A DNA stretch of 26,949 nucleotides from Candidatus Cloacimonadota bacterium (lineage in GTDB: Bacteria > Cloacimonadota > Cloacimonadia > Cloacimonadales > TCS61): positions 1 to 26,949 of the forward strand of contig JAQICU010000309.1 in the NCBI GenBank assembly GCA_027858325.1. The letters are read 5' to 3'. How positions within the stretch are numbered: the stretch's first letter is position 1; each line of letters opens with the position of its first letter. Position numbers and translations under genes: made by a program. Below are positions 2,553 through 20,990 of the stretch, piece by piece. The notes under the pieces were generated by a model. The model saw only the letters and a program-made list of their open reading frames with translations, had not been told where the DNA came from and did not search any database.

Positions 2553-4220
2553 ATGAAAAAGAAACTATTAGTTTTTGCCTTACTACTGCTTACTATATCT
2601 GTATTTGCAGTATGGAATGTTGGTGAGCCTATCACTGACGATTATTCATGGACAGACAGTAATGGAGAATATCATTCAATCCATGAACTAACTGAAGCAG
2701 GAAAAGCAATTGTAATTTTCTGGGGAGAAAGCTGGTGACCTGGGTGTACAGCGGCGGCGCCGTTTATGGAAGCTTGGTGGAACACACAAAATCCTGATGA
2801 AGTATATTACATTGCAACTTTTGATTGGTCTGTTAATGGTGTTTATATGCCATACGCAACAGAAGTTTATGGTTATTACTCTGATTTTGGCAATGGGTAT
2901 GTCCCTTTCTTTGGAGTATTTGGAGCATATAACAATTTCATGTATGGTGATAATGATTATCTGCCAGCTCAAAACATGGTTCCTAATGCAATTGAATCAT
3001 TCAATCATATAGGTTTAGCATTCCCTGTCGCCGATAGACAGATCAATTTCTGGGGATTCGATCATATTGATATTACCAACGAGTTTGGCACTCCAACCGG
3101 GAACCCAATTTCTTCTGTATCAATAACTGGCAACAGCAATCCTAATATTGCAAATGTAGAGCTTGTTGATAATGTTATCACTGTAATTGTTGGATCTGAA
3201 CTTGGTTCTACTGAGATCACTGTAACTGGAGATGATGGAACAGATGAAACTGTGGATGATGTATTTGTAATTACTGCTTTGAATCCTAATCTATTGAGTT
3301 ACGAATATCTTCTGGAAGATAGTCCGATTCAAGGATTATCTCCCAACAATCCAAATCCTTATTCAAACTCATATATCGATCTTGGCTGGACATCAATAGA
3401 TGTTACTGAAACGGATGAAATTGCAAATGTTTATTTCTCAGTAATGTGGGAAAGTGTTGATTATGTTAGTGAAGGAAGTTTCCGTGCTACATCTCCAAAC
3501 GGAACCGATGTTTTACTTTATAATCCTTCTGGCACAGATCCTGTACAATTAGAGATCAACGCTACAGAATTTAATGGTGAAGCAATGGATGGTGAATGGA
3601 TCATTTACATGTTAGATAGCTATGGTGACGGTGGACATCAGGTTACTGATGGTGTTGTAAACTTTATGTCCGATACAGATGAAATCGGTCAAGTCGCCGG
3701 TATTGTTTCAGATGCTGATGGCAATCCAATTCCAGAAGCAGTTATTTCTGTAAGTAATATTGCTACTATGGCAGATGATCTGGGTCAATTCTCATTTGAA
3801 ATTCTTAGTGGTGATTACACATTCACCTGTGAAGCTGAGGGTTACGAAGTAACTACTATAGACGATGAAGTGATTACAGATGAACTTACTTACCTTGATT
3901 TCCAATTGACAGCAATTACAGGGACTAATGATCTTCCAGTTCTTATAACAGAACTTCAAAGCAACTACCCAAATCCATTCAATCCAGTTACAAATATTTC
4001 TTATTCAGTTAAAGAAGCTGGAGATGTTACTCTTGAAGTTTACAATATAAAAGGACAACTCGTAACCACACTTGTTAACGAGGTAAAAGAAACAGGTAAT
4101 TATACAACAATCTGGAATGGTACAGACAATTCAAACAAATCTGTATCCAGTGGTGTTTACTTCTATAAAATGAAATCCGGCAACTACACTGCAACCAAGA
4201 AAATGATCTTAATGAAATAA
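2553..4220 (+). CDS. Secreted selenoprotein (555 aa, Sec62): signal peptide + UxxC thioredoxin-like domain + Ig-like + P-domain-like + carboxypeptidase-regulatory-like + FlgD-Ig/T9SS-like CTD
   Basis: ORFs 2553-2738 and 2766-4220 are in the same frame, separated only by TGA 2736-2738; readthrough gives FWGESW-U-PGC. SD AGGAG and signal peptide are on the upstream part only. SECIS-like hairpin follows. NYPNPFNP...KKMILMK terminus. Confidence 0.88.
2745..2768 (+). promoter_or_regulatory. Bacterial SECIS-like hairpin for TGA 2736-2738
   Basis: AGCGGC-[GGC]-GCCGTT upper stem, extendable with a bulged C2749; G-first loop starts 17 nt after the TGA. GC-rich GCG GCG GCG CCG codons in an AT-rich gene. 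Confidence 0.7.
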
Positions 4221-5306: not shown

Positions 5307-6911
5307 ATGAGGAAAATTTTGTGGATCACTTTTGCAATGCTGATACTATTTACTTCTCTTTTTGCACAATTACCTGACCCACAACATGTAGTTTCAGCAA
5401 AGATCGAAGAGAATCAAATAAAGGTAACATACATAATACCAAAAGGTTTTTATCAGACTTTATTAAAAGACATGTTATTCATCGATGTGGATGAAGTTCA
5501 TGGAATTACTTTCGAGCCAACTATCTATCCGGATGGTGAAAAATCCGAAGATGGTTATACTAAATATCATGGGAAGTTTTCATTAACTAAGCAGTTTACT
5601 ATTTCAGATAATTATAATGGGAATTCTTTTTTAAAAGTTTATGCTGGATATCAATTGTGTGATGAAGGCGGGACATGTTTTATGCCAGAAGAAGTTGAAT
5701 TCAGTTTAACTTTATCATCTGGCATAGAAGTAAAGGAAGAAGAAAGAACCGAAGACGCACATAAAGAAATTAAAAGCGTAGATGATATAGAAGGTCTGAT
5801 CGTTTTATTAGAAGACTTTGAGATCACTGGAAAAGAAGCTGGATATCAAAACAGTGAAGATTTCGTTACATTCCTGGAAAAAGCAAAAGAACCTGGTTCA
5901 TTAAGTACAAATAAATTTGCAAATATGAGTATCTGGCTTATTATCATCCTTATCTTACTCGGGGGAATTGCCTTAAATCTCACTCCCTGTGTCCTTCCTA
6001 TGATACCGATTACAATTGCTGTTTTAGGAGCCGGTACACAATCAGAATCAAAAGCTAAAGGATTTTTGATCGGTGGAATTTATGGTCTGGGAATGGCATT
6101 AGCTTATGGGTTGTTGGGTGTAATTGTGGTTCTCACCGGTTCTCAGTTCGGCACAATAAACTCATCTCCCTGGTTCAATATTATTATTGCCGCTATTTTT
6201 ATTGCATTAGCTTTAGCTATGTTCGATATCATTCCTATAGATTTCTCCAAATTTCAAAGTAATAAAGTCGGAAGTAAAAGCAGAAGTAAATTTATAACTG
6301 TATTTATTCTGGGAATCATTGCTGCTGTTTTGGCTGGAGCGTGTGTAGCTCCTGTTTTGATCTCAGTAATTTTGTATTCAACTTCACTATATACTGCTGG
6401 TAATCCTGCTGGATTGCTATTACCATTTTTATTAGGTGTTGGAATGGCAATTCCCTGGCCTTTTGCTGGAGCTGGTCTTTCCTTCCTTCCTAAACCTGGC
6501 AACTGGATGAAATGGGTAAAGATCATATTCGGGATTATTATCCTGATTATTGCGATATTCTATTTTTTCACAGGAATCAAAATTTTCAAGAGTAACAGAA
6601 CTGTAGAATATATTGCGGAATCGCATGAAACTTCTGAACTTCCATGGAAGCACTCTATAATTGAAGGTTTAAAATTAGCAAAAGAAGAGGATAAACCGGT
6701 TTTCATAGATTTTTGGGCAACCTGGTGTAAAAACTGTTTAGCTATGGATGCAACTACTTTCAAGGATGAAAAAGTGATAGAGGAATTCGAAAATTACATT
6801 TTGGTCAAATACAAAGCTGAAAACCTTAAAGTATCACCTACAAAAGAGATCTTAAATCACTTTGAAATAATCGGTTTGCCAACTTATATTACTTTGGTTC
6901 CGAAAAAATAG
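5307..6911 (+). CDS. dsbD: Protein-disulfide reductase DsbD
   Basis: Signal peptide, N-domain CDEGGTC, TM domain with LTPCVLP and GACVAP, C-terminal thioredoxin DFWATWCKNC. Confidence 0.92.
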   Translation: MRKILWITFAMLILFTSLFAQLPDPQHVVSAKIEENQIKVTYIIPKGFYQTLLKDMLFIDVDEVHGITFEPTIYPDGEKSEDGYTKYHGKFSLTKQFTISDNYNGNSFLKVYAGYQLCDEGGTCFMPEEVEFSLTLSSGIEVKEEERTEDAHKEIKSVDDIEGLIVLLEDFEITGKEAGYQNSEDFVTFLEKAKEPGSLSTNKFANMSIWLIIILILLGGIALNLTPCVLPMIPITIAVLGAGTQSESKAKGFLIGGIYGLGMALAYGLLGVIVVLTGSQFGTINSSPWFNIIIAAIFIALALAMFDIIPIDFSKFQSNKVGSKSRSKFITVFILGIIAAVLAGACVAPVLISVILYSTSLYTAGNPAGLLLPFLLGVGMAIPWPFAGAGLSFLPKPGNWMKWVKIIFGIIILIIAIFYFFTGIKIFKSNRTVEYIAESHETSELPWKHSIIEGLKLAKEEDKPVFIDFWATWCKNCLAMDATTFKDEKVIEEFENYILVKYKAENLKVSPTKEILNHFEIIGLPTYITLVPKK

Positions 6912-6916
6912 AAGGT

Positions 6917-8035
6917 ATGAAAATGAAGAAATTCCTGATCTTAATCAGCGTGGTTTTGATACTTTTTGCCTGTGATAGATTTGAACACAAATTTGAGCCG
7001 GAAATAAACAGTGAAAATTATATAATTGATTTTTTTAATACTTTTGCAGATTCAATTTCCACATTCCCGGAAAATATCCCTGGTATTATGTCTTTCTATA
7101 ATGATGACTATAATAATAATGGTGTCACAAAGTTGGATGTAGAAAATTTCTATATTGAACTTTCTCTTTTAACACCTGGTACTCTTGATCTTGAAGCAAT
7201 AATTATTGATACAACTGATAATTTCAATATTGAATGGAGATTGATAGCTACTGAACTCTCAACTTTTACATACTTGGATTCCATAATTACAGATGTTTTA
7301 TTGCCAACTGAAGATTCTTTCCAATTCTACGGAAACCAGGCAGACATGAGAAATGTTATTGTAGAACTTTTTACCGGACAATGGTGTCCAAACTGCCCAA
7401 ATGTTGAAGAAGCATTGCATAACCTCAGAATGCAATATGGAAGCAGATTCTCTTACGTTGAGTATCATATTGGCGATCAGCTTGCCGGTGATTTTTCAGA
7501 TATATTCAGTTATTATCCAAACAACGGAACACTGCCTTTCGGCATTGTAAACGGAAATGCACATATAGTTTATTCTGCTCAAAGTGTTGAGGAAGTTCAA
7601 GCAGAAATTGAAGCTGCAATTACACCACTTCTACAAGAACAACTTTTAGTATCTCTTTCTAACGTACAATCTAATCTTACAGATTCTCTGCTTACCGGAT
7701 CTGTCCAGATCGAGATTGATCCTTCCATTCCGACAGAAAACCTTACTTTGGTTGCTGTTTTGATGGAAGATTATAATGACGAGTATCTGAACAATCATGG
7801 AGATCCTCACTACAATATTGTGCTGAAAAGAACTACTTTCGATATTTCAGCTTTAAATTTAGATGATCCCATTGATTTTGAAATAACAGATCTGGATGTA
7901 CTTCCGCAATGGTATATGGACAATACAATCGGTTTACCCGAGGATCTTACTTTAGTGATCTGGGTTCAAACTTTAGAGATACCGTATAATCAAAATACAT
8001 GTGCTGTATATAATGTTATCGAAGTTTCTCTATAA
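6917..8035 (+). CDS. Lipoprotein with C-terminal Omp28-like thioredoxin-fold domain (CPNC)
   Basis: Lipobox LFA-C; VELFTGQWCPNCP motif resembling Omp28-family proteins. Confidence 0.75.
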   Translation: MKMKKFLILISVVLILFACDRFEHKFEPEINSENYIIDFFNTFADSISTFPENIPGIMSFYNDDYNNNGVTKLDVENFYIELSLLTPGTLDLEAIIIDTTDNFNIEWRLIATELSTFTYLDSIITDVLLPTEDSFQFYGNQADMRNVIVELFTGQWCPNCPNVEEALHNLRMQYGSRFSYVEYHIGDQLAGDFSDIFSYYPNNGTLPFGIVNGNAHIVYSAQSVEEVQAEIEAAITPLLQEQLLVSLSNVQSNLTDSLLTGSVQIEIDPSIPTENLTLVAVLMEDYNDEYLNNHGDPHYNIVLKRTTFDISALNLDDPIDFEITDLDVLPQWYMDNTIGLPEDLTLVIWVQTLEIPYNQNTCAVYNVIEVSL

Positions 8036-8056
8036 ATATTTAAGGAGTGATATAAC

Positions 8057-8596
8057 ATGAAAAATATTTTTATAACTATACTGATCATGATTCTGGCAAT
8101 TCAAATATTTGCTGCTGAAAAAGCCGGTGATTTTAAATTAGAAAACATTGAAGGTAAACAGGTTAAATTATCTGATTTTCAAAAAGAAGGTCTAGTAATA
8201 TTAGATTTCTGGGCGACCTGGTGTGTTCCCTGTAAAAACGGACTACCTAAAATAAATGAATTACATGAAAAATATGATAATGTTAATGTATTGACAATCA
8301 ACGTAGATAAACCTCGAAAAAAAGCCGCGGCCATTTCTACTGTCAAATCGAATCGTTTTACATTCCACACATTATTCGATTCCAAAAAAGTTGTTCAAAA
8401 ACAATATAACATTACAAATATTCCTCGCACATTGATCATAGATCAGGATGGAACAATAATTTATGATCATACAGGTTATCAGCGAGGTGATGAAAAACAT
8501 TATGAGGAAGTGATCGTTAAGTGGCTGGAAGAACAGGAGACCGGTGAACCCAAGGAAGATATATCCGAACCAGAAATCGAAGTACCGGAAGACTAA
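8057..8596 (+). CDS. TlpA-family thiol-disulfide reductase
   Basis: Signal peptide; DFKLENIEGKQVKLSDF, LDFWATWCVPC and cis-Pro NIPRT motifs. Confidence 0.9.
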   Translation: MKNIFITILIMILAIQIFAAEKAGDFKLENIEGKQVKLSDFQKEGLVILDFWATWCVPCKNGLPKINELHEKYDNVNVLTINVDKPRKKAAAISTVKSNRFTFHTLFDSKKVVQKQYNITNIPRTLIIDQDGTIIYDHTGYQRGDEKHYEEVIVKWLEEQETGEPKEDISEPEIEVPED

Positions 8597-8608
8597 TATG
8601 GTGAGAAA

Positions 8609-10087
8609 ATGAAAAAAACTTTCTTATTGATTATTTTGTTAAGCCTGACAGCAAATCTACTCTATTCAGAATTGAACCTCTCCGGAGTGGATGAAAGAGA
8701 ATTTATTAATGTTAACAGAATCATTGAAAATAGAAACTATTTTGTAAATAAACTACAGATTCAAGCACAATACAACCCGTTTCGCTTGGGACTTAAATTT
8801 GATTATTACAAACCTCATTTTGACAAATTTATGCTCATCAATGATGATATGAGTAATGAATTTATTGAGGATCAGTTGAATACAGAAAAAGATGAATACT
8901 ATTTCGATGAATACTACCTGCAATATGAATCTGATCATTGGTTTGCTCAGGCAGGAACTTTTGAAGCAGTTATCGGTTCCGGTATTGTTTTACACAATTT
9001 CTATGATGATGACTTTGAATCGGATTCCAGATTGATCGGTGGGTATGTAAATCCGGTTTATGATAGATGGCAAATGCAATTGTTTGGCGGAGTCATGGAA
9101 AGCATCGATCCTAATTTAGAAGATGAATACGATCAGGTAGGTGCTTTAGATGCAGCTGTAAGTTTTACAGAGAAACTTACTGTTGGTGGCAGCTATGTTC
9201 TACATAGAGAACTTATTAATGCAGACGAAGATGAATTCAATAACAGAACTGTTTATGCAGGGAAACTAAACTTCTCCTCTTCCCTATTTGATCTACACAC
9301 TGAATATGCAACCAGCAAAGATGATGAAGATGTAACAGGATCTGCAATCTATTCCAACATTGCATCTTATATAGGTAAATTCACACTTATTGGTGCTTAT
9401 AAAAATTACGAAAATTTTGATGTGAGAATATCCGATCTGCCGATGGTTAATCACTCAGGACAAATTTTGGAGCATAGTTGGGATGCTGGAAAAGATGAAG
9501 AAGGGCTAATGGGAGAGATACGTTTTCTTCCTAATTATGAAAATGAATTTATAGTAAATTATGCCGAAGGTTGGAACAGTAATTTCATGGTAAGGCTAGC
9601 TAATTTCTATTCCGAATTCAAACATGATTTTGAAGTCTGGTCATTCAAAGCTGAATTTGAATCATTGGAACAACTTAACAAAGAAGATACAAATAGATGG
9701 TATAAAGAGATCACTCCTACTCTTACTTTTGATTTTCTAGTGAAGGAAAGTCCTGTTCTAATTAAAGCTGAATATCAATATAAAGAAGAAGATAAAATAA
9801 TCGGTAATTATTCGCATTTTGAACCTCGTTTACAAACAGATATAGCAATTGGAAACTATTCTTTATCTGTCGCAGTTGAAAACCAGATCGGTGACTCTGA
9901 CTCACCTGAAGATGGAGATGATGGTGAATACTGGATCGGTGGAGAACTTGCAACAACAATATTCAATAATACTGATTTACGATTATTTTATGGTAAAGAA
10001 AAAGGCGGTATCGTTTGTCGAAATGGTGTTTGTAAAAATCAGGCAGAATTTGATGGGATCCGTCTGAGTGTAACAACAACGTTTTAA
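8609..10087 (+). CDS. Predicted outer-membrane beta-barrel (DUF6029-like) with C-terminal CxxxxC
   Basis: Signal peptide, alternating amphipathic strands, terminal Phe, GGIVCRNGVC near the C-terminus. The family name is from recall of similar TlpA/Omp28-linked proteins and is not verified. Confidence 0.65.
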   Translation: MKKTFLLIILLSLTANLLYSELNLSGVDEREFINVNRIIENRNYFVNKLQIQAQYNPFRLGLKFDYYKPHFDKFMLINDDMSNEFIEDQLNTEKDEYYFDEYYLQYESDHWFAQAGTFEAVIGSGIVLHNFYDDDFESDSRLIGGYVNPVYDRWQMQLFGGVMESIDPNLEDEYDQVGALDAAVSFTEKLTVGGSYVLHRELINADEDEFNNRTVYAGKLNFSSSLFDLHTEYATSKDDEDVTGSAIYSNIASYIGKFTLIGAYKNYENFDVRISDLPMVNHSGQILEHSWDAGKDEEGLMGEIRFLPNYENEFIVNYAEGWNSNFMVRLANFYSEFKHDFEVWSFKAEFESLEQLNKEDTNRWYKEITPTLTFDFLVKESPVLIKAEYQYKEEDKIIGNYSHFEPRLQTDIAIGNYSLSVAVENQIGDSDSPEDGDDGEYWIGGELATTIFNNTDLRLFYGKEKGGIVCRNGVCKNQAEFDGIRLSVTTTF

Positions 10088-10105
10088 TAATTAAGGAGAT
10101 ATAAA

Positions 10106-10831
10106 TTGAAAAAGTTAATTTTATTATTATTTTTAGTGATGAGCATGGGGTTAGTTCATGCTGAATTGGAAGTTGATATTCCATTTGATATGGATATCAT
10201 CGGTGACGATTTTTCAGTAGTTGGTCCCTATATTTATGAATCAGATTGGATCACGATCTCAAATGTTGGTTCAACAAATGAAACATATACTATAACATGT
10301 TCTTTCAGTGAAGTGCCGGCAGATTGGACAGCTAGCGTTTGTAATGAACTAGGATTATGTTACATTCCCAATATGCCTTCTAATATCGATATTAACGCTG
10401 GTGAATTTGTGCTTATTCATCTTTTACTGGGAGTAAATAGTACTGGTGGCTGTGGTGTGAACATTACACTGGATGACGGAGACCTTACAGAACCGATCAG
10501 TCTTGATTTCAGATTTGATACAGCTGACAATGTAAGCGCTGATGAGGAACTTATTCCAGCTCTCATACTTGGACAGAACTATCCAAATCCGTTTAATCCG
10601 AGTACAACAATTTCTTATAACCTATCTACTGAGGAATTGGCAAACGCAAGTATTTCCATTTATAATACAAAAGGACAATTAATTAGAACATTTAACGATC
10701 TTAATACTAACGGAAGTATTATATGGGATGGAAAAGATGATAACAATAATATCGTTAACTCAGGTGTTTATTTCTATAAATTAAATAGCATAAAATCTTC
10801 GAAAATAAGAAAAATGATCTTAATTAAATAA
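10106..10831 (+). CDS. Small secreted protein with FlgD-Ig/T9SS-like CTD and a 4-Cys N-terminal domain
   Basis: TTG start after AAGGAG; signal peptide; WTASVCNELGLCY motif; QNYPNPFNP...RKMILIK terminus. Confidence 0.8.
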   Translation: MKKLILLLFLVMSMGLVHAELEVDIPFDMDIIGDDFSVVGPYIYESDWITISNVGSTNETYTITCSFSEVPADWTASVCNELGLCYIPNMPSNIDINAGEFVLIHLLLGVNSTGGCGVNITLDDGDLTEPISLDFRFDTADNVSADEELIPALILGQNYPNPFNPSTTISYNLSTEELANASISIYNTKGQLIRTFNDLNTNGSIIWDGKDDNNNIVNSGVYFYKLNSIKSSKIRKMILIK

Positions 10832-10842
10832 AGGAGGGAAAA

Positions 10843-12807
10843 ATGAAAAAGAGCATTTTATTACTGGTTTTATTGGTTTTGACAATGTCATTGTTTGGCG
10901 TCTATAATGTCGGTGATATAGTAGATAACTATACTTGGACAGACAATACGGGAGCGGCACATGATATTTATGAGCTAACTGCTCAAGGTGTAGCAATCGT
11001 CTTCTTCTGGGGAGGTTATTCCTGACCTAGCTGTGTTGCGGCGGCGCCGCAATTTCAAGCTTTATGGGAACAACAACAACAGTATCCGGATGGTAATGTA
11101 TATATGATTACACAAACTGACTGGGGTGCAGGACATACTCATTTCACAGGGATAGGAGCATCAGGTGCATTTGGGAATGGATATATCCCCTTGTTTGCAG
11201 TTATAGGTGCAGACAATGAATGTTATTATAATAATAATTACTTTTCCAGTGTAACATCAGCTCTGAATCTAGCAATTGAATCATTTGGACTTAATGCAAA
11301 TATGACGGCAAATGTAACAAGTGGACCTGCGAATCTAGCAGTTCAATTTCAAAGCCTTTGCACACCAGCAAATGGTATCGAAAGCTGGGAATGGGATCTG
11401 GATGGTGATGGCGAGATCGACAGTACAGAAGAAGATCCTTATTTTCTTTATACTGAACAAGGTACTTATGATGTCACCTTAACAATAACTATGGACGGAG
11501 AGACATCTACACTCACAAATGAAGATTATATCACGGTTACCGACGGCTCGAATATCTCGGGATCTCTTTCCGGTAACTGGATTGCCGGTAATACATACAC
11601 TATAACTGGTGAGGTTGATATACCTGAAGGTAATGAACTAATAATTACTGAGGGAACTGAGATCAATATAGAAAATGACACTCAGTTGTTAGTAAATGGG
11701 CTTCTGGCAGCAGATGCATCATCTTCACGAGGAGAACCTATTATTTTCAAATCAGAATCTTCCTGGAGCGGTATAAGATTCTTTAATACTCAAGAAGATA
11801 ATATTCTTGCTAACTGTGAGATCTCCAATGCTAGTGTTTCCGCTATTTTGGTAGAAGGTGATTCAAAAGTTGATGTTATCGGATGTAAAATATTTGATAA
11901 TACGAGTACTTCACTTGGAGCAGCATTTGAAGTTATTGGATCTGATAATGTTCTGATCTCTCAAAACATAATTGCTAATAATTACAGTACAAATTCTGTA
12001 GGTGGTATCAAATGCATCAATTCAGCAATAGAGATCACTAATAATCTGATAGTTAACAATTCAGGATCATACAGTGCTATTATTCTTCAAAACGGTTCTG
12101 ATGTAGAGTTTACGAACAATACAATTGCCAACAATGAAGCAAATGGTGTAAACGCTTATACATTCTTTATCTTAAGCTCAGATCCTGTCATCAAGAATTG
12201 CATTATCAACGATAGCAATCCGATTTTCTTTGCTTCCGGTACTATAGATGTAACATATACCTGTATAAGTGGTGGATATGAGGGCACAGGCAACATCGAT
12301 GAAGATCCTCTCTTTGCTGCACCAACAGCCGGAGACGGAACAGGATATGATGGACTTGCTGCTGATTGGAGCTTACAAGCTGGTTCACTTTGTATAAATG
12401 CCGGTGATCCTGATGCAATGTACAACGATACAGATGGAACAAGAAACGATATGGGTGCTTATGGAGGACCAACACCGTACGAATTGGAACCAACAGATTC
12501 AGATGATAACACAGTTAATGTAGCTGCTATCAACTCAATCTCTGTTTACCCAAATCCATTCAACCCGACAGCTAACATTGCACTTTCCATTAATGAGAAT
12601 GATATTCAGCAGCCTGTATCTGTAGAGATCTTCAACATAAAAGGGCAATTAGTTAAAACAATTGTGAATAATGAGATTGTCCAAAATACAAACTTTGTGT
12701 GGAACGGAAAAGACAACAGTGGTAACTCAACTTCCAGCGGAATGTATTTTGTGAAGCTGAAAACAGCTACTTCTGAAGTTTCTAAAAAGATGCTGTTGAT
12801 TAAATAG
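10843..12807 (+). CDS. Secreted selenoprotein (654 aa, Sec61): signal peptide + UxxC thioredoxin-like domain + PKD + parallel beta-helix + FlgD-Ig/T9SS-like CTD
   Basis: ORFs 10843-11025 and 11104-12807 are in frame, separated only by TGA 11023-11025; readthrough gives FWGGYS-U-PSC. The N-terminus is paralogous to 2553-2738 and a SECIS-like hairpin follows. Confidence 0.88.
11035..11053 (+). promoter_or_regulatory. Bacterial SECIS-like hairpin for TGA 11023-11025
   Basis: TTGCGGC-[GGC]-GCCGCAA perfect 7-bp stem; loop starts 17 nt after the TGA; compensatory base change relative to the 2745-2768 hairpin. Confidence 0.75.
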
Positions 12808-12828: not shown

Positions 12829-12859
12829 AAAAGGGAACTGCTTTTACAGTTCCCTTTTT
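12829..12859 (+). terminator. Intrinsic terminator (possibly bidirectional)
   Basis: AAAAGGGAACTG-CTTTTA-CAGTTCCCTTTTT, 21 nt after the stop. Confidence 0.85.
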
Positions 12860-12943
12860 CTTACTCAGATTAAAACTATTTACGTATATGGAATGAGATA
12901 TGCATTAATAAGATGAGTTAAAATTTTTAGAAAGGAGTATTAG

Positions 12944-15900
12944 ATGTTAATAATAAAAAAACTGATTCTTGTTTTGATCTTCACAATGATGCTAACCGGA
13001 CTTTTTGGTGCTTATCTCATAGATCAACCACAGATTCTCACTCAACCTGATGGGAAAATACTGCATTGTTTTGCCTCTGGAGATGAATTCCACAACTGGC
13101 TGCATGATGAAAACGGATATACAATAATTCAAGATCCTGACACGGGATATTTTGTGTATGCTGACCTGATAGGTGAGAAACTGGTTTCTACCAGCTATAC
13201 TGCAGGTCAAATAGATCCGGCAACTACAAGTTTAAAACCAGGGTTGAATGCAAAACCTGAAGGATTTGAACAAAGAGTTGAAGAGTTCAATCAAATACTG
13301 GCAGATAGAAGAAGCAGAGTTTCCACGATCGGTGATCTGAACAATCTTGTTGTATTTATCCGTTTTTCCGATCAAACAGAATTCACTGAAACTTTAACAC
13401 AATATAATAACTTGTTCAATGCTGTTGATGAAAGCTCGATGTATCAATATTTTGACGAAGTATCGAATGAACAACTCGATATAACTTCCCATTTCTATCC
13501 CGAACCAAACGGCAATCTTATCATTTCGTATCAAAGTCCAAATCCTCGTAATTATTACGAAGTTTATAATGCTGTGACTAATCCGAACGGTTACCAAACT
13601 GATCAACAACGTACTCAAAGGGAACATGCACTTTTACAAGCTGCAATCCAATTTGTAGAAGCTCAAATACCTCCAACTCTGGATCTGGATAATGATGATG
13701 ATGGCTTAGTGGACAATGTTTGTTTCATCATCAAGGGTAGTACTGGAGCATGGGCAGACCTGCTTTGGCCCCACATGTGGGTTTTATATTCACTTGATGT
13801 TTACATTCATGGTGTGCAGGTGTGGACTTATAATTTCCAATTGTCTCAAAGTTTAAACAGCAGCGGAGTAGGAGTTTTATGTCATGAGATGTTCCACTCT
13901 CTGGGCGCACCCGATCTTTATCATTATACAAACAATGGCATCTCTCCCACCGGTAGTTGGGATTTGATGTGCGCAAATACAAATCCACCCCAGCACATGA
14001 CCACCTGGATGAAATATAAATATGGGCTCTGGTTCGATGAAGTTCCTGAAATAAACACTACTGGAACTTATACATTGGAACCGGTCGTTGATTCCCCTTA
14101 TAGTTGTTACAAAATTCCTTCTCCAAATTCTAGTACAGAATTCTTTATGGTGGAATACCGTCGCAGAACCGGGTTATTTGAACCTAGCATCCCTGGAGAC
14201 GGCTTGATCATATATAGGATAGACCCGACCCTGAATGGGAATGCTTCCGGTCCTCCGGATGAAGTTTATCTCTTCCGTCCCGATGGAACCATGACCAACA
14301 ACGGTAACGTTAATCAAGCACATTTTTCGGCTGATGTTGGCAGAACTGAATTTAATGACAACACAAATCCTGCCGGATTCCTGCAATATGGTGCACCAGG
14401 CGGGATCTTTATTTCCGAAATTGGTTTTGTAGGTGATACAATCGAATTTACCTTAAATGCAGGACTCGTCCCAATGTTTGAAACCAATGTGCAAACTGGA
14501 CCTGCCTACCTGGGAGTACAATTCACTAACACTTCATTTCCTGTTACAGGTATTGATAGCTGGGAATGGGATTTTGATGGAGATGGCATTTTTGACAGCA
14601 CAGAAGAGAATCCGTTCCATCTCTATACTGAACCTGGTGTGTATGATGTAACTCTTAAGATCGAAGTTGATGGAGAATTCGCTGAGATCACTGTTGAAGA
14701 TTATATCACAGTTACAGATGGTTCTTCAGTTAGTGGAAATCTTTCAGGAGTATGGGTACCTGATTTCAGCCCATATATGATTTCCGAAGATATTGTTATT
14801 GCAGAAGGTGATGAACTAATAATTACTGAGGGAGTTGAGATTATTTTTGCCGGAAATGTACAATTTACTGTGAATGGACTTCTGGCAGCAGATGCTTCTT
14901 CGACAAGAGGAGAACCTATTATTTTCAAATCAGAATCTTCCTGGAACGGTATAAGATTCTTTGTTACTCAAGAAGATAATATTATTGCTAACTGCGAGAT
15001 TTCCGATGCAAGTGTTTCGGCTATCAAGATTGAAGGTGATTCAAAAGTTGATGTTATCGGCTGTAAGATATTTGATAATAATAGTACTTCACTTGCTGCA
15101 GCATTTGAGATTATAGGATCTGATAATGTTCTGATCTCACAAAACATTATTGCCAATAACATAAGCACAAGCAACGCTGGAAGTATTGGCTGCAATGCCT
15201 CTTCTCCTGGAATCACAAATAATATTATTGTGAATAACACTGGACAATGGGGTGCATTTTACTTATCGAATGATTCTAATCCAATCATGACTAATAATAC
15301 AATTGCGAATAATGAATCAACTAAAGAAATTGCCGGTACTCAAACTCCATACCTGTTCTTCCTTTTGAATTCAATTCCAATTATTACTAATTCGATCATC
15401 ATTGATAATGGTGAAATCCATTTTCCGCTGAGTACACCTGAAATTACCTATAGTTGCGTAACAGGTGGATTTACAGGTGAAGGAAATATTGATGAAGATC
15501 CGCTTTTTGTTGCACCAACAGCCGGAGACGGAACAGGATATGGCGGGCTTGCTGCTGATTGGAGCTTACAAGCTGGTTCACTTTGTATAAATGCTGGTGA
15601 TCCTGCTACTATGTACAACAATATAGATGGAACAAGAAACGATATGGGCGCTTATGGTGGTCCAACTCCTTTCGAAATGGAACCAACAGATTCTGATGAT
15701 AACACAGTTAATGTAGCTGCTATCAATTCAATCTCTGTATATCCTAATCCGTTCAATCCAACTGCCAATATAGCTCTTTCAATTAACGATAATGATATCC
15801 AGCAGCCTGTATCAGTTAAGATCTTCAACATTAAAGGTCAGCTTGTAAAAACAATTGTGAATAATGAAGTCGTCCAAAATACAAACTTTGTCTGGAATGG

Positions 15901-16000
15901 AAAAGACAATAAGGGCAATTCTACCGCAAGCGGAATGTATTTTGTGAAGCTAAAAACAGCTACTTCTGAAGTTTCTAAAAAGATGCTGTTGATTAAATAA
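12944..16000 (+). CDS. Secreted M6-family (immune inhibitor A-like) zinc metalloprotease + PKD + beta-helix + FlgD-Ig/T9SS-like CTD
   Basis: Signal peptide, propeptide-like QPDG...GDEFHNW region, GVLCHEMFHSLGAPDLY (HExxH), WDLM, EFFMVEYR motifs; C-terminal half paralogous to 11311-12807. Confidence 0.88.
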   Translation: MLIIKKLILVLIFTMMLTGLFGAYLIDQPQILTQPDGKILHCFASGDEFHNWLHDENGYTIIQDPDTGYFVYADLIGEKLVSTSYTAGQIDPATTSLKPGLNAKPEGFEQRVEEFNQILADRRSRVSTIGDLNNLVVFIRFSDQTEFTETLTQYNNLFNAVDESSMYQYFDEVSNEQLDITSHFYPEPNGNLIISYQSPNPRNYYEVYNAVTNPNGYQTDQQRTQREHALLQAAIQFVEAQIPPTLDLDNDDDGLVDNVCFIIKGSTGAWADLLWPHMWVLYSLDVYIHGVQVWTYNFQLSQSLNSSGVGVLCHEMFHSLGAPDLYHYTNNGISPTGSWDLMCANTNPPQHMTTWMKYKYGLWFDEVPEINTTGTYTLEPVVDSPYSCYKIPSPNSSTEFFMVEYRRRTGLFEPSIPGDGLIIYRIDPTLNGNASGPPDEVYLFRPDGTMTNNGNVNQAHFSADVGRTEFNDNTNPAGFLQYGAPGGIFISEIGFVGDTIEFTLNAGLVPMFETNVQTGPAYLGVQFTNTSFPVTGIDSWEWDFDGDGIFDSTEENPFHLYTEPGVYDVTLKIEVDGEFAEITVEDYITVTDGSSVSGNLSGVWVPDFSPYMISEDIVIAEGDELIITEGVEIIFAGNVQFTVNGLLAADASSTRGEPIIFKSESSWNGIRFFVTQEDNIIANCEISDASVSAIKIEGDSKVDVIGCKIFDNNSTSLAAAFEIIGSDNVLISQNIIANNISTSNAGSIGCNASSPGITNNIIVNNTGQWGAFYLSNDSNPIMTNNTIANNESTKEIAGTQTPYLFFLLNSIPIITNSIIIDNGEIHFPLSTPEITYSCVTGGFTGEGNIDEDPLFVAPTAGDGTGYGGLAADWSLQAGSLCINAGDPATMYNNIDGTRNDMGAYGGPTPFEMEPTDSDDNTVNVAAINSISVYPNPFNPTANIALSINDNDIQQPVSVKIFNIKGQLVKTIVNNEVVQNTNFVWNGKDNKGNSTASGMYFVKLKTATSEVSKKMLLIK

Positions 16001-17088: not shown

Positions 17089-17919
17089 ATGAAAAATAAG
17101 ATTTCATCATTTGAAGGAATACGATCATTCCTGAAAGAAGGAGCCTGATCTGCAGCATTGTTGAGAGTTCTCAACTAAAGCTTTGATAAGAGGAAGCAAC
17201 TGGAAGAGAAAGGTTCTGCGCTACTGGCAGGTGGAATTATGCAGCATGGTTATCAATGCGGCATGATCTGGGGAGCAGTTCTCGCAGCAGGAGCCCAAGC
17301 TTATGAAAGATTTGGGTCTGGAGCAGAAGCTGAAACCAGAGCAATAATGGCAGCACAAAAACTTGTAGATGCCTTTCAAACTTGTACTGGTGAGATAGAC
17401 TGTTTCGAAATAACAGATATCGACAAATCATCTTCAACTATGAAGATGATCTATGTTTTTCTGATAAAAGGTAAAACCCTTGGCTGCATGCGCCTGGCTG
17501 GAAAATATGCTCCAATAGCATTTAATGAGATAAATGCTGCGTTTGCAGAAGAACAAATCGAAATACCATCAGCTCCAGTAAGCTGTGCCGCGGAATTGGC
17601 AAGAAAAATGGGTGCTTCGGAAAAACATGTTGTTATGGCAGCTGGACTTGCCGGCGGCATCGGTTTATGTGGTGGTGCTTGTGGAGCATTGGGAGCTGCA
17701 ATTTGGTTCATGACTATGAATAAAGGTTTAGACAGCAAAATGGAATTTAAAGATCCCAAGGCTCTTGAATTAATTGAAACAGCATTTTTACCAAACTCCG
17801 ATTATGAATTCGAGTGTTCCGAAATAGTTGGTCGCAAGTTTAAAAATATAAAAGATCATGCCAGGTTTATTCGTGAGGGAGGATGTGCAAAGCTCATCGA
17901 AACATTGGCAGGGAAATAA
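17089..17919 (+). pseudogene. Tandem C_GCAxxG_C_C-family redox (seleno)protein, 276 codons, with Sec TGA at codon 20 and premature TAA at codon 30 (pseudogene status uncertain)
   Basis: ATG 17089 after AAGGA is in frame with 17239-17919. U-SAALLR aligns with the second internal repeat C-AAELAR. Both repeats have LAGGI..G..CG..GA. TAA at 17176-17178. Confidence 0.7.
17154..17182 (+). promoter_or_regulatory. Bacterial SECIS-like hairpin for TGA 17146-17148
   Basis: GTTGAG-[AGTT]-CTCAAC upper stem; loop starts 17 nt after the TGA; lower stem AGC..TT/AA..GCT with T17176 bulged. Confidence 0.65.
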
Positions 17920-19448: not shown

Positions 19449-20990
19449 CTATACTTCTTTCCTCATTTTCTCAAACTGATCTTTTCCACCAGATAGTATA
19501 AAAGAATTTGGAGCAGCTTCTTTTGCCAGCTTCATCATTCTGCCTGCAGTTTCTTTGATGTCCCATTGAGCATGTTCATCTTCCCGTAAACGGGAGAAAT
19601 GATACAATTCACGTGGATTAGCAGAAACCAAAACTCTGCGTCTATGAGCATTGGTTAAGCAGTATTCTGCAGCTTTGCCATACTTTGGCACAAATTCAAA
19701 ATAGAGTTCTTCACTTCTACGGCAAATATCCAGCAGATCATTCTCGGCATTTATTGCTTTGATAGAAGTTGGAACAGTAATTCCCAGGCTGGGATCGTAA
19801 TCCTGAGTTAAAATCGTCATCAACCTGTGTCGTTTTAGTTGAGCAAAATTACTGGCACTCACCACCAATTCGTATTTCAATTCTCCGGTGAATTCAAATT
19901 CACGGGGCAATGGATCGAAAGCTGAAATATATTTAAGAATTTCTGAGAAGAAGTTTTTCCCTCTTTCCGTATCTGCCAGAATATAACAGGTGATCCGATA
20001 TGCATCTTCTATCGAAAGCTTGGAATTATGGTGAATGATCGCAGCGGCAATGTTCCGATCCACGTTTGATTCAAGGATCAGTTTTTCATGTTCTTCGGTT
20101 AATATTTCAGGAATTCCTTCGTGCTGTTTGCCGTAATATTTTTCTATCAGTTCTTTCACATATTTCTTTAAGTGTGAGTTTGTAAATTTAAAATGATCAT
20201 CCTGCAAATCTGTTTTAAATGCTTTTTTGAATTCTGTCGGATCACTGAGAATGATAAGCGATGGTGCAATTTCTTTAGTCACTTCAAATAATTTCTGAGC
20301 AAGTTCCCGACATTCCACCAACTCCGAATAACGCATGGTACGGATGGCATGTTCCAGTGTACGAGCATTGAATGACAAACCCAATTGTGCCTGAGTTGCT
20401 AAACTTAAAGCATATCTGGCATCTTCTTTAGCCCAGCCTTCCAGAGTGTTTTTAGCGCGATTCATTTTGTCGGAAGTGCCTTTCCCCATTGCGAGTTGGG
20501 CTTGTTTAGCCAAATCAGGATTGGAAGCAAACTGATGATCAGTTAGTTTTTGTAAATTTCGTAAATAGAAATCATTTTGGAATTCTACGAGTTCTCTAAA
20601 TTTCTTTGCATCTTCCTCACTGAATTCTTTTGGAATCACAAAATCACCTTGCAAAGTAATGTATCTTTGAGATTTTTATGTATAAGCAGCACCGATGCGG
20701 CGTGCTTCCAGTTCTTCCAGAGTTAGGCGTGAAATTTGCAGAATATCGAAATTGAAATAAGCATGTTCTGCCACAGAGTGATGGCTCATTCCAAAAACGA
20801 TAGCTTGATTGGAACGCCTTGCTTTCTTGACCTGTTCCCGTGCTTCGGCTCTAAGTTCGGGAACATCTCGAGGATCACGACTTATTCGTGCATAAGCTGC
20901 TGAGATTGTCTCCGGTGTTGCAATTGTGTCTTCCGGTAATTTATCTATCAAATTTTTATCGATGTTGAATCCGGCTAATATGATTTTCAT
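19449..20990 (-). pseudogene. thyX: Tandem-domain FAD-dependent thymidylate synthase (ThyX) interrupted by a single in-frame TAA (pseudogene status uncertain)
   Basis: 20676-20990 and 19449-20654 are in the same frame: ...IGAAYT-TAA-KSQRYITLQG. SVAEHA, SQRY, QLKRHR and LREDEHAQWDI motifs. Confidence 0.8.

Follow-up and report, generated by a model that had tools for sequence, protein, structure and literature searches.

A putative type IX-secreted selenoprotein with a thioredoxin-like head in Cloacimonadota

Introduction

Does an in-frame TGA that cuts a gene for an exported protein in two mark the end of a short peptide, a damaged gene, or a selenocysteine (Sec) codon? This question is raised by positions 10,843 to 12,807 of contig JAQICU010000309.1 of an uncultured Candidatus Cloacimonadota bacterium that is represented solely by a metagenome-assembled genome (assembly GCA_027858325.1), of which we analyzed positions 1 to 26,949 of the forward strand, here called the window (26,949 nucleotides [nt]). 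With translation table 11, the frame is called as two open reading frames (ORFs) of 60 residues (10843-11025) and 567 residues (11104-12807). We conclude that it is very probably one gene, for an exported selenoprotein of 654 residues in which the UGA would be decoded as Sec within a thioredoxin-like redox head, and which the type IX secretion system (T9SS) would display on the cell surface. Bacterial selenoproteins known so far are mostly cytoplasmic or periplasmic enzymes, and Cloacimonadota are anaerobic fermenters.

Results

Gene structure

A single frame runs from ATG 10843 to TAG 12805-12807, and its sole interruption is TGA 11023-11025, at codon 61. Reading this codon as a residue yields 654 residues in one frame that has no other stop, as the initial annotation of the locus had proposed; its description of the tail as PKD plus beta-helix plus C-terminal sorting domain (CTD) is likewise borne out, the Pfam families PKD_4, Beta_helix and Por_Secre_tail/FlgD_ig all matching above their gathering scores. 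The stop codon of the upstream gene lies at 10829-10831. The features of the gene are as follows.

10832-10837, plus strand: Shine-Dalgarno sequence AGGAGG, 5 nt ahead of ATG 10843 (seen in the sequence)
10843-10902, plus strand: putative N-terminal signal peptide of about 20 residues (MKK, hydrophobic core, LFG/VY; sequence features)
10903-11292, plus strand: predicted TlpA/ResA-like thioredoxin-fold head, about residues 21-150 (AlphaFold2 [AF2] model, Foldseek, profile against the Protein Data Bank [PDB], invariant columns)
11023-11025, plus strand: predicted UGA selenocysteine codon, residue 61 (conservation; Cys, encoded by TGC, at the same position in the homologue P0076)
11036-11052, plus strand: predicted selenocysteine insertion sequence (SECIS) hairpin within the coding sequence (covariation; geometry common to selD and a CxxU gene)
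11299-11538, plus strand: PKD domain, about residues 153-232 (PF18911, PKD_4, 38.1 bits against a cut-off of 27)
11554-12402, plus strand: right-handed parallel beta-helix, about residues 238-520 (PF13229, 50.3 bits against a cut-off of 25.9)
12544-12807, plus strand: T9SS type A CTD (residues 568-654) and TAG stop (PF18962, 37.6 bits against 27; TIGR04183, 39.9 bits against 23)
12830-12862, plus strand: intrinsic-terminator-like hairpin (AAAGGGAACTG / CAGTTCCCTTT) followed by a T-rich tail, which closes the gene cluster (seen in the sequence)

The n- and h-regions of the putative signal peptide are kept across all orthologues, and AF2 models its residues 2-15 as a detached helix. The hairpin at 12830-12862 was not listed by a consensus terminator scan.

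Conservation of the TGA codon

The window holds a second split gene of the same kind, selenoprotein 1.

2553-4220, plus strand: paralogue, 555 residues when read through, with TGA 2736-2738, the motif UPGC and a CarboxypepD_reg plus CTD tail (alignment, Pfam)

The heads of the two genes are 46% identical over 140 residues (E = 4e-29) in an alignment that crosses both TGAs uninterrupted, and every motif that the initial annotation had quoted as common to them was found. No further copies of the head were detected in this genome, whose assembly is estimated to be 83% complete.

For a wider view, the 150-residue head was used to query 232 Cloacimonadota genomes, with E <= 2.6e-20 defining a strong match. 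Exactly one in-frame TGA was present in each of the 59 strong homologues, which come from 53 genomes and have open frames of 226 to 1071 residues. The codon aligns with the first position of the motif FWGxxx-U-xx-C in all 31 loci first fetched and in 17 further loci. When 185,579 species genomes were searched by pattern and tblastn, 53 loci came back, nearly all labelled Candidatus Cloacimonadota (a few bear the submitter labels Delongbacteria, Bacteroidales or Armatimonadota); U occupies the active site in 52 of 52 heads with a locatable motif, the motif not being located in the 53rd. A motif search did not locate it in two relatives without a TGA either (G175:C145 and G134:C160). More than 50 species share the TGA, including ones whose heads are only about 30-40% identical, which reinforces the earlier argument from the two paralogues against a nonsense mutation or a sequencing error. 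The architecture of 640 to 660 residues was found in about 30 genomes of the phylum scan, so the gene is not a recent chimera.

A Cys form of the protein exists as well. The homologue P0076 (650 residues, same architecture) has CGGC at the site, its first Cys being encoded by TGC, and it lies directly upstream of a Sec-containing paralogue in the metagenome locus L063. In this contig (Joint Genome Institute metagenome, 8001-11945), the Cys form (CGGC, no hairpin) and the Sec form (UGAC, hairpin CGGC-GGU-GCCG) of the same protein of 640-650 residues stand in tandem, a natural Sec/Cys pair for comparison.

A metatranscriptome library contains one contig of 182 nt, from a 95%-identical relative, that covers 10978-11157 with the TGA and the hairpin unchanged. 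This counts as weak support because such libraries can hold DNA; it shows that the TGA is retained and does not prove transcription.

A small hairpin downstream of the UGA

The predicted SECIS begins 13 nt past the TGA. Numbering from the T of the TGA, a stem of 7 bp pairs +14..+20 with +24..+30 and is capped by a GGC triloop at +21..+23 (11043-11045); the core of the hairpin, CGGCGGCGCCG, specifies (A)AAP. In 31 of 31 orthologues the block CGGCGGCGCC(G) (+17..+27) is unchanged, while synonymous sites on either side vary. Codon choice follows the same pattern: the Ala codons +5 to +7 are GCG in 83 of 83 cases as opposed to 6.3% of Ala codons genome-wide, and the Pro codon is CCG in 30 of 31 cases against a genome-wide 21%, with all four codons being used at an Ala ten codons upstream.

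On 47 distinct sequences, 83% of the cells of the stem are paired, and five of the seven pairs have changed on both sides, the inner four being almost invariant. The covariation score of the stem is 0.181; shuffles score 0.078, none of 500 attaining the value of the stem, and all slid registers score lower. Several relatives keep a hairpin with other letters. L059 has AGAGGAG-GCU-CUCCUCU at the same position, encoding EEEAP; L077 and L121 have AGGC-GGC-GCCU, a double change from C:G to A:U; the Sec paralogue of L063 has a GGU loop and encodes ATAVP; and L139 has CGUCG-GUUC-CGACG. The Cys homologue reads ATG GCA GCG at the site and has no hairpin in the SECIS register. A different helix, GCUGU/GCGGC, which RNAalifold had proposed from the first 31 sequences, was dropped, as compensatory changes, the slid registers and selD favored the CGGC-GGC-GCCG register.

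The same geometry recurs elsewhere in the genome, the selD hairpin having its loop at precisely the offset seen in the two heads. We scanned the genome for stop codons followed in an open frame by a GGC loop at +17..+26 on a stem of 5 bp or more. There were six matches after TGA, one after TAA (at +17) and none after TAG; the loop lay at +20 (counted from 0), on a stem of 6 bp or more, in four of the TGA cases, namely the two heads, selD and a CxxU gene on contig C371, and in none of the TAA or TAG cases. The last of the four (TGA at about 4131, plus strand) is a carboxymuconolactone-decarboxylase/AhpD-like gene with C-H-Y-U and the hairpin GGAGC-GGC-GCUCU at the same loop offset, and it is probably another selenoprotein gene of this genome. 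A GGC triloop at +21..+23 thus appears to be the standard SECIS design of the lineage.

The SECIS of the Escherichia coli fdhF type is a hairpin just 3' of the UGA with a G in its apical loop, bound by SelB. The hairpin described here resembles it in lying within the coding sequence, 13 nt past the UGA, with a G-rich loop about 17 to 20 nt from the UGA. It differs in being very small, with a stem of 4 to 7 bp, a GGC triloop and no bulged U; loop variants in the family are GGU, AGC, GCU and GUUC. The string U-P-x-C-x-AAAP, which had been presented as conserved, is present. Its AAAP part is not purely a protein motif: since its codons form the SECIS stem-loop, we conclude that it mainly reflects a constraint on the RNA and is, at the protein level, a shadow of the SECIS.

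Selenocysteine machinery

The Sec machinery, whose absence would by the initial annotation have refuted the proposal, is complete in the 2.29-Mb assembly (392 contigs, 35.6% GC), each component scoring above its curated cut-off. The selB gene (327 bits) and a tRNA-Sec gene (60 bits) are adjacent on contig C69, selA (555 bits) is on C249, and selD (352 bits), with one TGA of its own, is on C290. The selD gene (locus L010, about 1507-1540) is itself a selenoprotein gene, with ..KAAG-U-AGK.. and the SECIS AGUCC-GGC-GGACU.

Fold and relatives of the head

The head carries the motif U61-P-S-C64. An AF2 model built from a 30-sequence alignment (predicted local distance difference test [pLDDT] 87.9) has a thioredoxin fold, with U61 at the start of helix 62-77 and the invariant cis-Pro116 (GNGYIP) in the loop ahead of strand 117-121. 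Foldseek against the PDB returned first 4nmu, 4ka0, ResA, Etrx2, CcmG and DsbE (E = 2e-7 to 1e-5, template modeling score 0.55-0.70 overall and 0.60-0.70 for 4nmu, ResA and CcmG), the Bcp and Tpx peroxidases ranking after these thiol-disulfide oxidoreductases. A family profile searched against the PDB matched 3hcz, a "possible thiol-disulfide isomerase" (E = 8.7e-6), with FW..CxxC....P aligned. The ResA model NF002854 gave 19 bits against a cut-off of 170, and no dedicated selenoprotein model of NCBIfam matched the head.

The model and the structural matches support a TlpA/ResA/CcmG-type thioredoxin domain. The head would share with TlpA, ResA and CcmG (DsbE) (cd02966; 4nmu, 1su9, 2b1k, 3hcz) the thioredoxin fold, the N-terminal beta-hairpin, an xxC motif at helix 1, the cis-Pro loop and a predicted extracytoplasmic location, and its gene lies beside those of DsbD and another TlpA. 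In contrast to these proteins, it has Sec in place of the nucleophilic Cys, its similarity is under Pfam and NCBIfam cut-offs, and, whereas they are small and membrane anchored or periplasmic, it heads a 654-residue protein with PKD, beta-helix and T9SS sorting domains.

Etrx1 and Etrx2 of Streptococcus pneumoniae (4hqs, 4hqz) are surface-exposed TlpA-like reductases supplied by a membrane carrier of the CcdA/DsbD type. They are among the top structural matches of the head. Both are lipoproteins of a Gram-positive envelope with Cys rather than Sec at the active site, whereas the protein studied here is predicted to lie beyond the outer membrane, out of the direct reach of DsbD.

Thioredoxin-fold selenoproteins with UxxC have been described in three families: cd02966 "thiol-disulfide isomerase-like," PF00578 "Prx-like" and PF08534 "Redoxin" (PMC13188914, Table 1). 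They belong to the same superfamily, have the same motif and were likewise predicted from an in-frame TGA and Cys homologues; the comparison is by description. The review makes no mention of Cloacimonadota, T9SS, sorting domains or extracellular display.

A real selenoprotein could do another job, as a peroxidase of the peroxiredoxin (Prx)/Bcp type, as a periplasmic oxidase or isomerase that folds T9SS cargo, or in the binding or reduction of sulfur, selenium or metals. The head has weak AhpC-TSA matches, Foldseek also returned the Bcp and Tpx peroxidases, Prx-like UxxC selenoproteins are a described family (PMC13188914), and the genome encodes many CTD-bearing proteins. The best sequence and structure matches are nonetheless reductases, TlpA, ResA, CcmG and Etrx; the Prx signature PxxxTxxC is absent, the motif being FWGGxxUxxC with U where Prx has Thr; and the genomic partners DsbD and TlpA form a reducing pathway. 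We therefore regard such a role as unlikely, and a thiol-disulfide reductase of the TlpA type as the better reading of the head.

Tail, export and modularity

The full-length AF2 model (pLDDT 80.9) consists of the head, the PKD domain, a long beta-helix of regular short strands (pLDDT about 90), a disordered linker at residues 543-564 and a beta-sandwich CTD. Among the Foldseek matches are collagenase and PrtV PKD domains and, for the CTD, that of a T9SS substrate in 8glk. The protein resembles T9SS type A cargo (TIGR04183/PF18962) in that it has a putative signal peptide and a sorting domain above cut-offs, in a genome with many cargo genes (at least 50 CTD-bearing ORFs). It departs from the usual T9SS setting in that the machinery homologues in this genome score under curated cut-offs: a PorU-like gene reaches 342.7 bits (cut-off 420), and PorV-like matches of 89 and 81 bits fall in one 403-residue frame (cut-off 250).

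The tail had been described as completely different from that of the paralogue. The tails of the two genes, that of the paralogue having CarboxypepD_reg and Por_Secre_tail above their gathering scores, are indeed otherwise unrelated, but the CTD, the last 90 or so residues, is common to both. Nor is this tail peculiar to the gene, because its neighbor has a closely similar one.

12944-16000, plus strand: M6-like metalloprotease with a PKD plus beta-helix plus CTD tail (Pfam, alignment)

The two tails (11293-12807 and 14440-16000) are 72% identical, and nearly identical over the last 100 or so residues, a pattern of sequence similarity that suggests gene conversion between the neighboring selenoprotein and protease genes.

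Across the phylum, many other heads bear the PKD plus beta-helix plus CTD tail, and the UxxC head is in turn found with other tails, namely Cleaved_Adhesin plus fn3 plus CTD, CarboxypepD_reg plus CTD, MAM plus CTD, a CTD alone, and dockerin. The predicted head is thus a mobile module that, by its sequence matches, is fused to several unrelated surface-display tails in Cloacimonadota. At L080 (G173:C32:19700-21200), a UxxC head is joined to a type I dockerin, with no T9SS sorting domain, and its SECIS loop is AGC.

Other readings of the UGA

If the UGA were a true stop, the locus would encode a secreted peptide of 60 residues and a separately initiated, leaderless protein of 567 residues. ORF callers and public databases treat the family in this way, and in all its database relatives the start is placed beyond the TGA, at one ATG or GTG codon or another. 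However, the downstream ATG 11104 is not conserved (orthologues carry F, I or L) and has no Shine-Dalgarno sequence, and the 26 codons from the TGA to this ATG are conserved as protein. The downstream product would have no signal peptide and yet a T9SS sorting domain, which requires prior export by the Sec translocation pathway, and the break would split the modeled thioredoxin fold between strand 3 and helix 1. Termination at codon 61 is therefore very improbable.

Were a variant code or a suppressor to insert a standard residue at the UGA (Trp, Gly or Cys), the same open frame would result from readthrough alone. TGA terminates 83 of 556 long ORFs in this genome (15%), which indicates a standard genetic code and rules out an alternative one. 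Moreover, there is exactly one TGA per gene, always at the nucleophilic position of the CxxC motif, and with it come a dedicated Sec machinery and a hairpin of the SelB type that selD also has. We give this explanation as little credence as that of a true stop, and decoding as Sec, which the conservation of the codon and of the hairpin points to as SelB dependent, remains the preferred reading.

Finally, a pseudogene or an assembly or sequencing error, that is, a nonsense change from TGC or TGT in an ordinary CxxC thioredoxin-fold gene, is refuted for practical purposes: even though a Cys form (TGC) exists in a homologue and no contig of the two DNA runs holding this organism covers the codon, the TGA recurs at the same codon in all 59 strong homologues and all 52 heads of the wider scan, is the only stop in frames of 640 to 1070 residues, is carried by both copies in the window despite their limited identity, and is linked to an RNA hairpin under purifying selection.

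Gene cluster and link to DsbD

The gene is the last of a six-gene cluster with gaps of 5 to 21 nt, whose other members are as follows.

5307-6911, plus strand: DsbD
6917-8035, plus strand: CxxC protein
8057-8596, plus strand: TlpA-like thioredoxin
8609-10087, plus strand: DUF6029 barrel
10106-10831, plus strand: CTD protein of 241 residues

The gene order is found again in three genomes, from the same genus (G188), the same family (G157) and another family of the class (G228), and in L063, where the Sec/Cys tandem lies upstream of dsbD, a gene of 360 residues, tlpA, the DUF6029 gene and the CTD protein gene. In genus g61 the gene has no such neighborhood. The DUF6029 barrel-like protein, encoded directly after tlpA, is kept in the cluster across genomes, and the end of the protein reads ..GIVCRNGVCKNQ...

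Docking of the N-terminal domain of the L063 DsbD with the head of the Cys homologue gave a score of 0.48, the best control giving 0.00, and was graded as weak support. Of 80 solved complexes, 55 reached this mark, as did 3 of 110 mismatched pairs; with a score of 0.60 or under, it was reached by only 7 of the 80 and by all 5 of the mismatches that passed. The docked interface comprises W64-C72 (with the CGGC motif) and the cis-Pro loop of the head and, on the DsbD side, residues 129-140, a Cys-rich segment.

Other features of the window

A C_GCAxxG_C_C-type protein is encoded at 17089-17919. In frame ahead of it are an ATG, a TGA at codon 20, the hairpin GUUGAGA-GUU-CUCAAC and an interrupting TAA at codon 30; judging from this layout, the region may be a third, broken or oddly organized selenoprotein gene. 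On the minus strand, at 19449-20990, two ORFs of 104 and 401 residues are adjacent, with a short gap between them.

Discussion

The observations can be assembled into a working model of the protein. SelB and Sec-tRNA(Sec) would read UGA-61 as Sec, as its conservation indicates; the signal would be the small hairpin 13 nt past the UGA, with its GC stem and GGC triloop at +21..+23, built from the codons of (V/T)AAAP. The signal peptide would carry the protein over the inner membrane, and the N-terminal 130 residues are predicted to fold as a TlpA/ResA/CcmG-type domain in which the selenol/thiol pair of U-P-S-C lies beside the cis-Pro loop. The PKD domain and the beta-helix would serve as a stalk, and the type A CTD would route the folded protein via the T9SS to the cell surface. 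There, the selenolate would attack disulfides or other oxidized sulfur or selenium species of external substrates, and Cys64 would resolve the mixed intermediate. While still periplasmic, the head may be charged with electrons by the DsbD pathway; this step, weakly supported, is proposed because the dsbD and tlpA genes are conserved and co-located. The stalk held in common with neighboring proteases suggests a role in the opening of disulfide-bonded external proteins.

Several points weigh against this picture. The Sec assignment rests on sequence evidence, and the genomes compared are related, so that the counts overstate independence. The SECIS is sparse: only its inner 4 bp are nearly always formed, the outer three pairing in about 50 to 65% of sequences. 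Its single-sequence folding energy is within the range of shuffles (z = -1.47 here and +0.94 for the paralogue), so that thermodynamics alone does not show the hairpin, and Rfam has no matching SECIS family, a permissive search of 10800-11300 having given chance snoRNA matches only. The head does not reach the gathering scores of Pfam (19.4 against 26 for AhpC-TSA and 17.5 against 26.6 for Redoxin), nor do the PorU- and PorV-like matches reach their curated cut-offs. As for DsbD, the gene is not beside dsbD in one family of the class (f17/g61), and the score of the docked complex is weak and may reflect memory of the solved nDsbD-CcmG or nDsbD-DsbC structures. A surface protein would also be beyond the reach of DsbD, and catalytic turnover would need another reductant.

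One conceivable, if doubtful, answer to the supply of electrons is an envelope-wide thiol/selenol relay. From cytoplasmic thioredoxin, electrons would go to DsbD, on to TlpA in the periplasm and the CxxC protein, and from these by way of the DUF6029 outer-membrane barrel, with its C-terminal Cys pair, or past it, to the T9SS-displayed selenoprotein heads. Such a relay would provide an anaerobic protein fermenter with a renewable disulfide reductase at the cell surface, and disulfide-bonded external proteins would be opened for surface proteases on the same stalk (the M6-like protease here, an S8 peptidase in L063).

Thioredoxin-fold selenoproteins with UxxC were already known. What looks new is the T9SS-cargo fusion, together with a modular family that spans the phylum and a minimal SECIS lying in the AAAP codons; literature searches, including those combining selenoprotein with Cloacimon*, Cloacimonetes or "type IX secretion," returned no paper on a T9SS-cargo selenoprotein.

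For annotation, the consequence is direct. The family, of at least 59 genes in 53 species genomes, is stored as truncated "T9SS sorting domain," "PKD repeat" or "beta-helix" proteins, and its recognition restores the catalytic head in those entries and enlarges the selenoproteome of Cloacimonadota. A UGA with a GGC triloop on a GC stem, the loop lying 17 nt away, provides a simple, lineage-specific rule for finding selenoprotein genes, and the SECIS described here is a clear case of an RNA signal that fixes a protein motif, AAAP. As for the biology of these bacteria, a selenol site on interchangeable surface-display stalks suggests that they may carry out selenium-dependent redox chemistry outside the cell.

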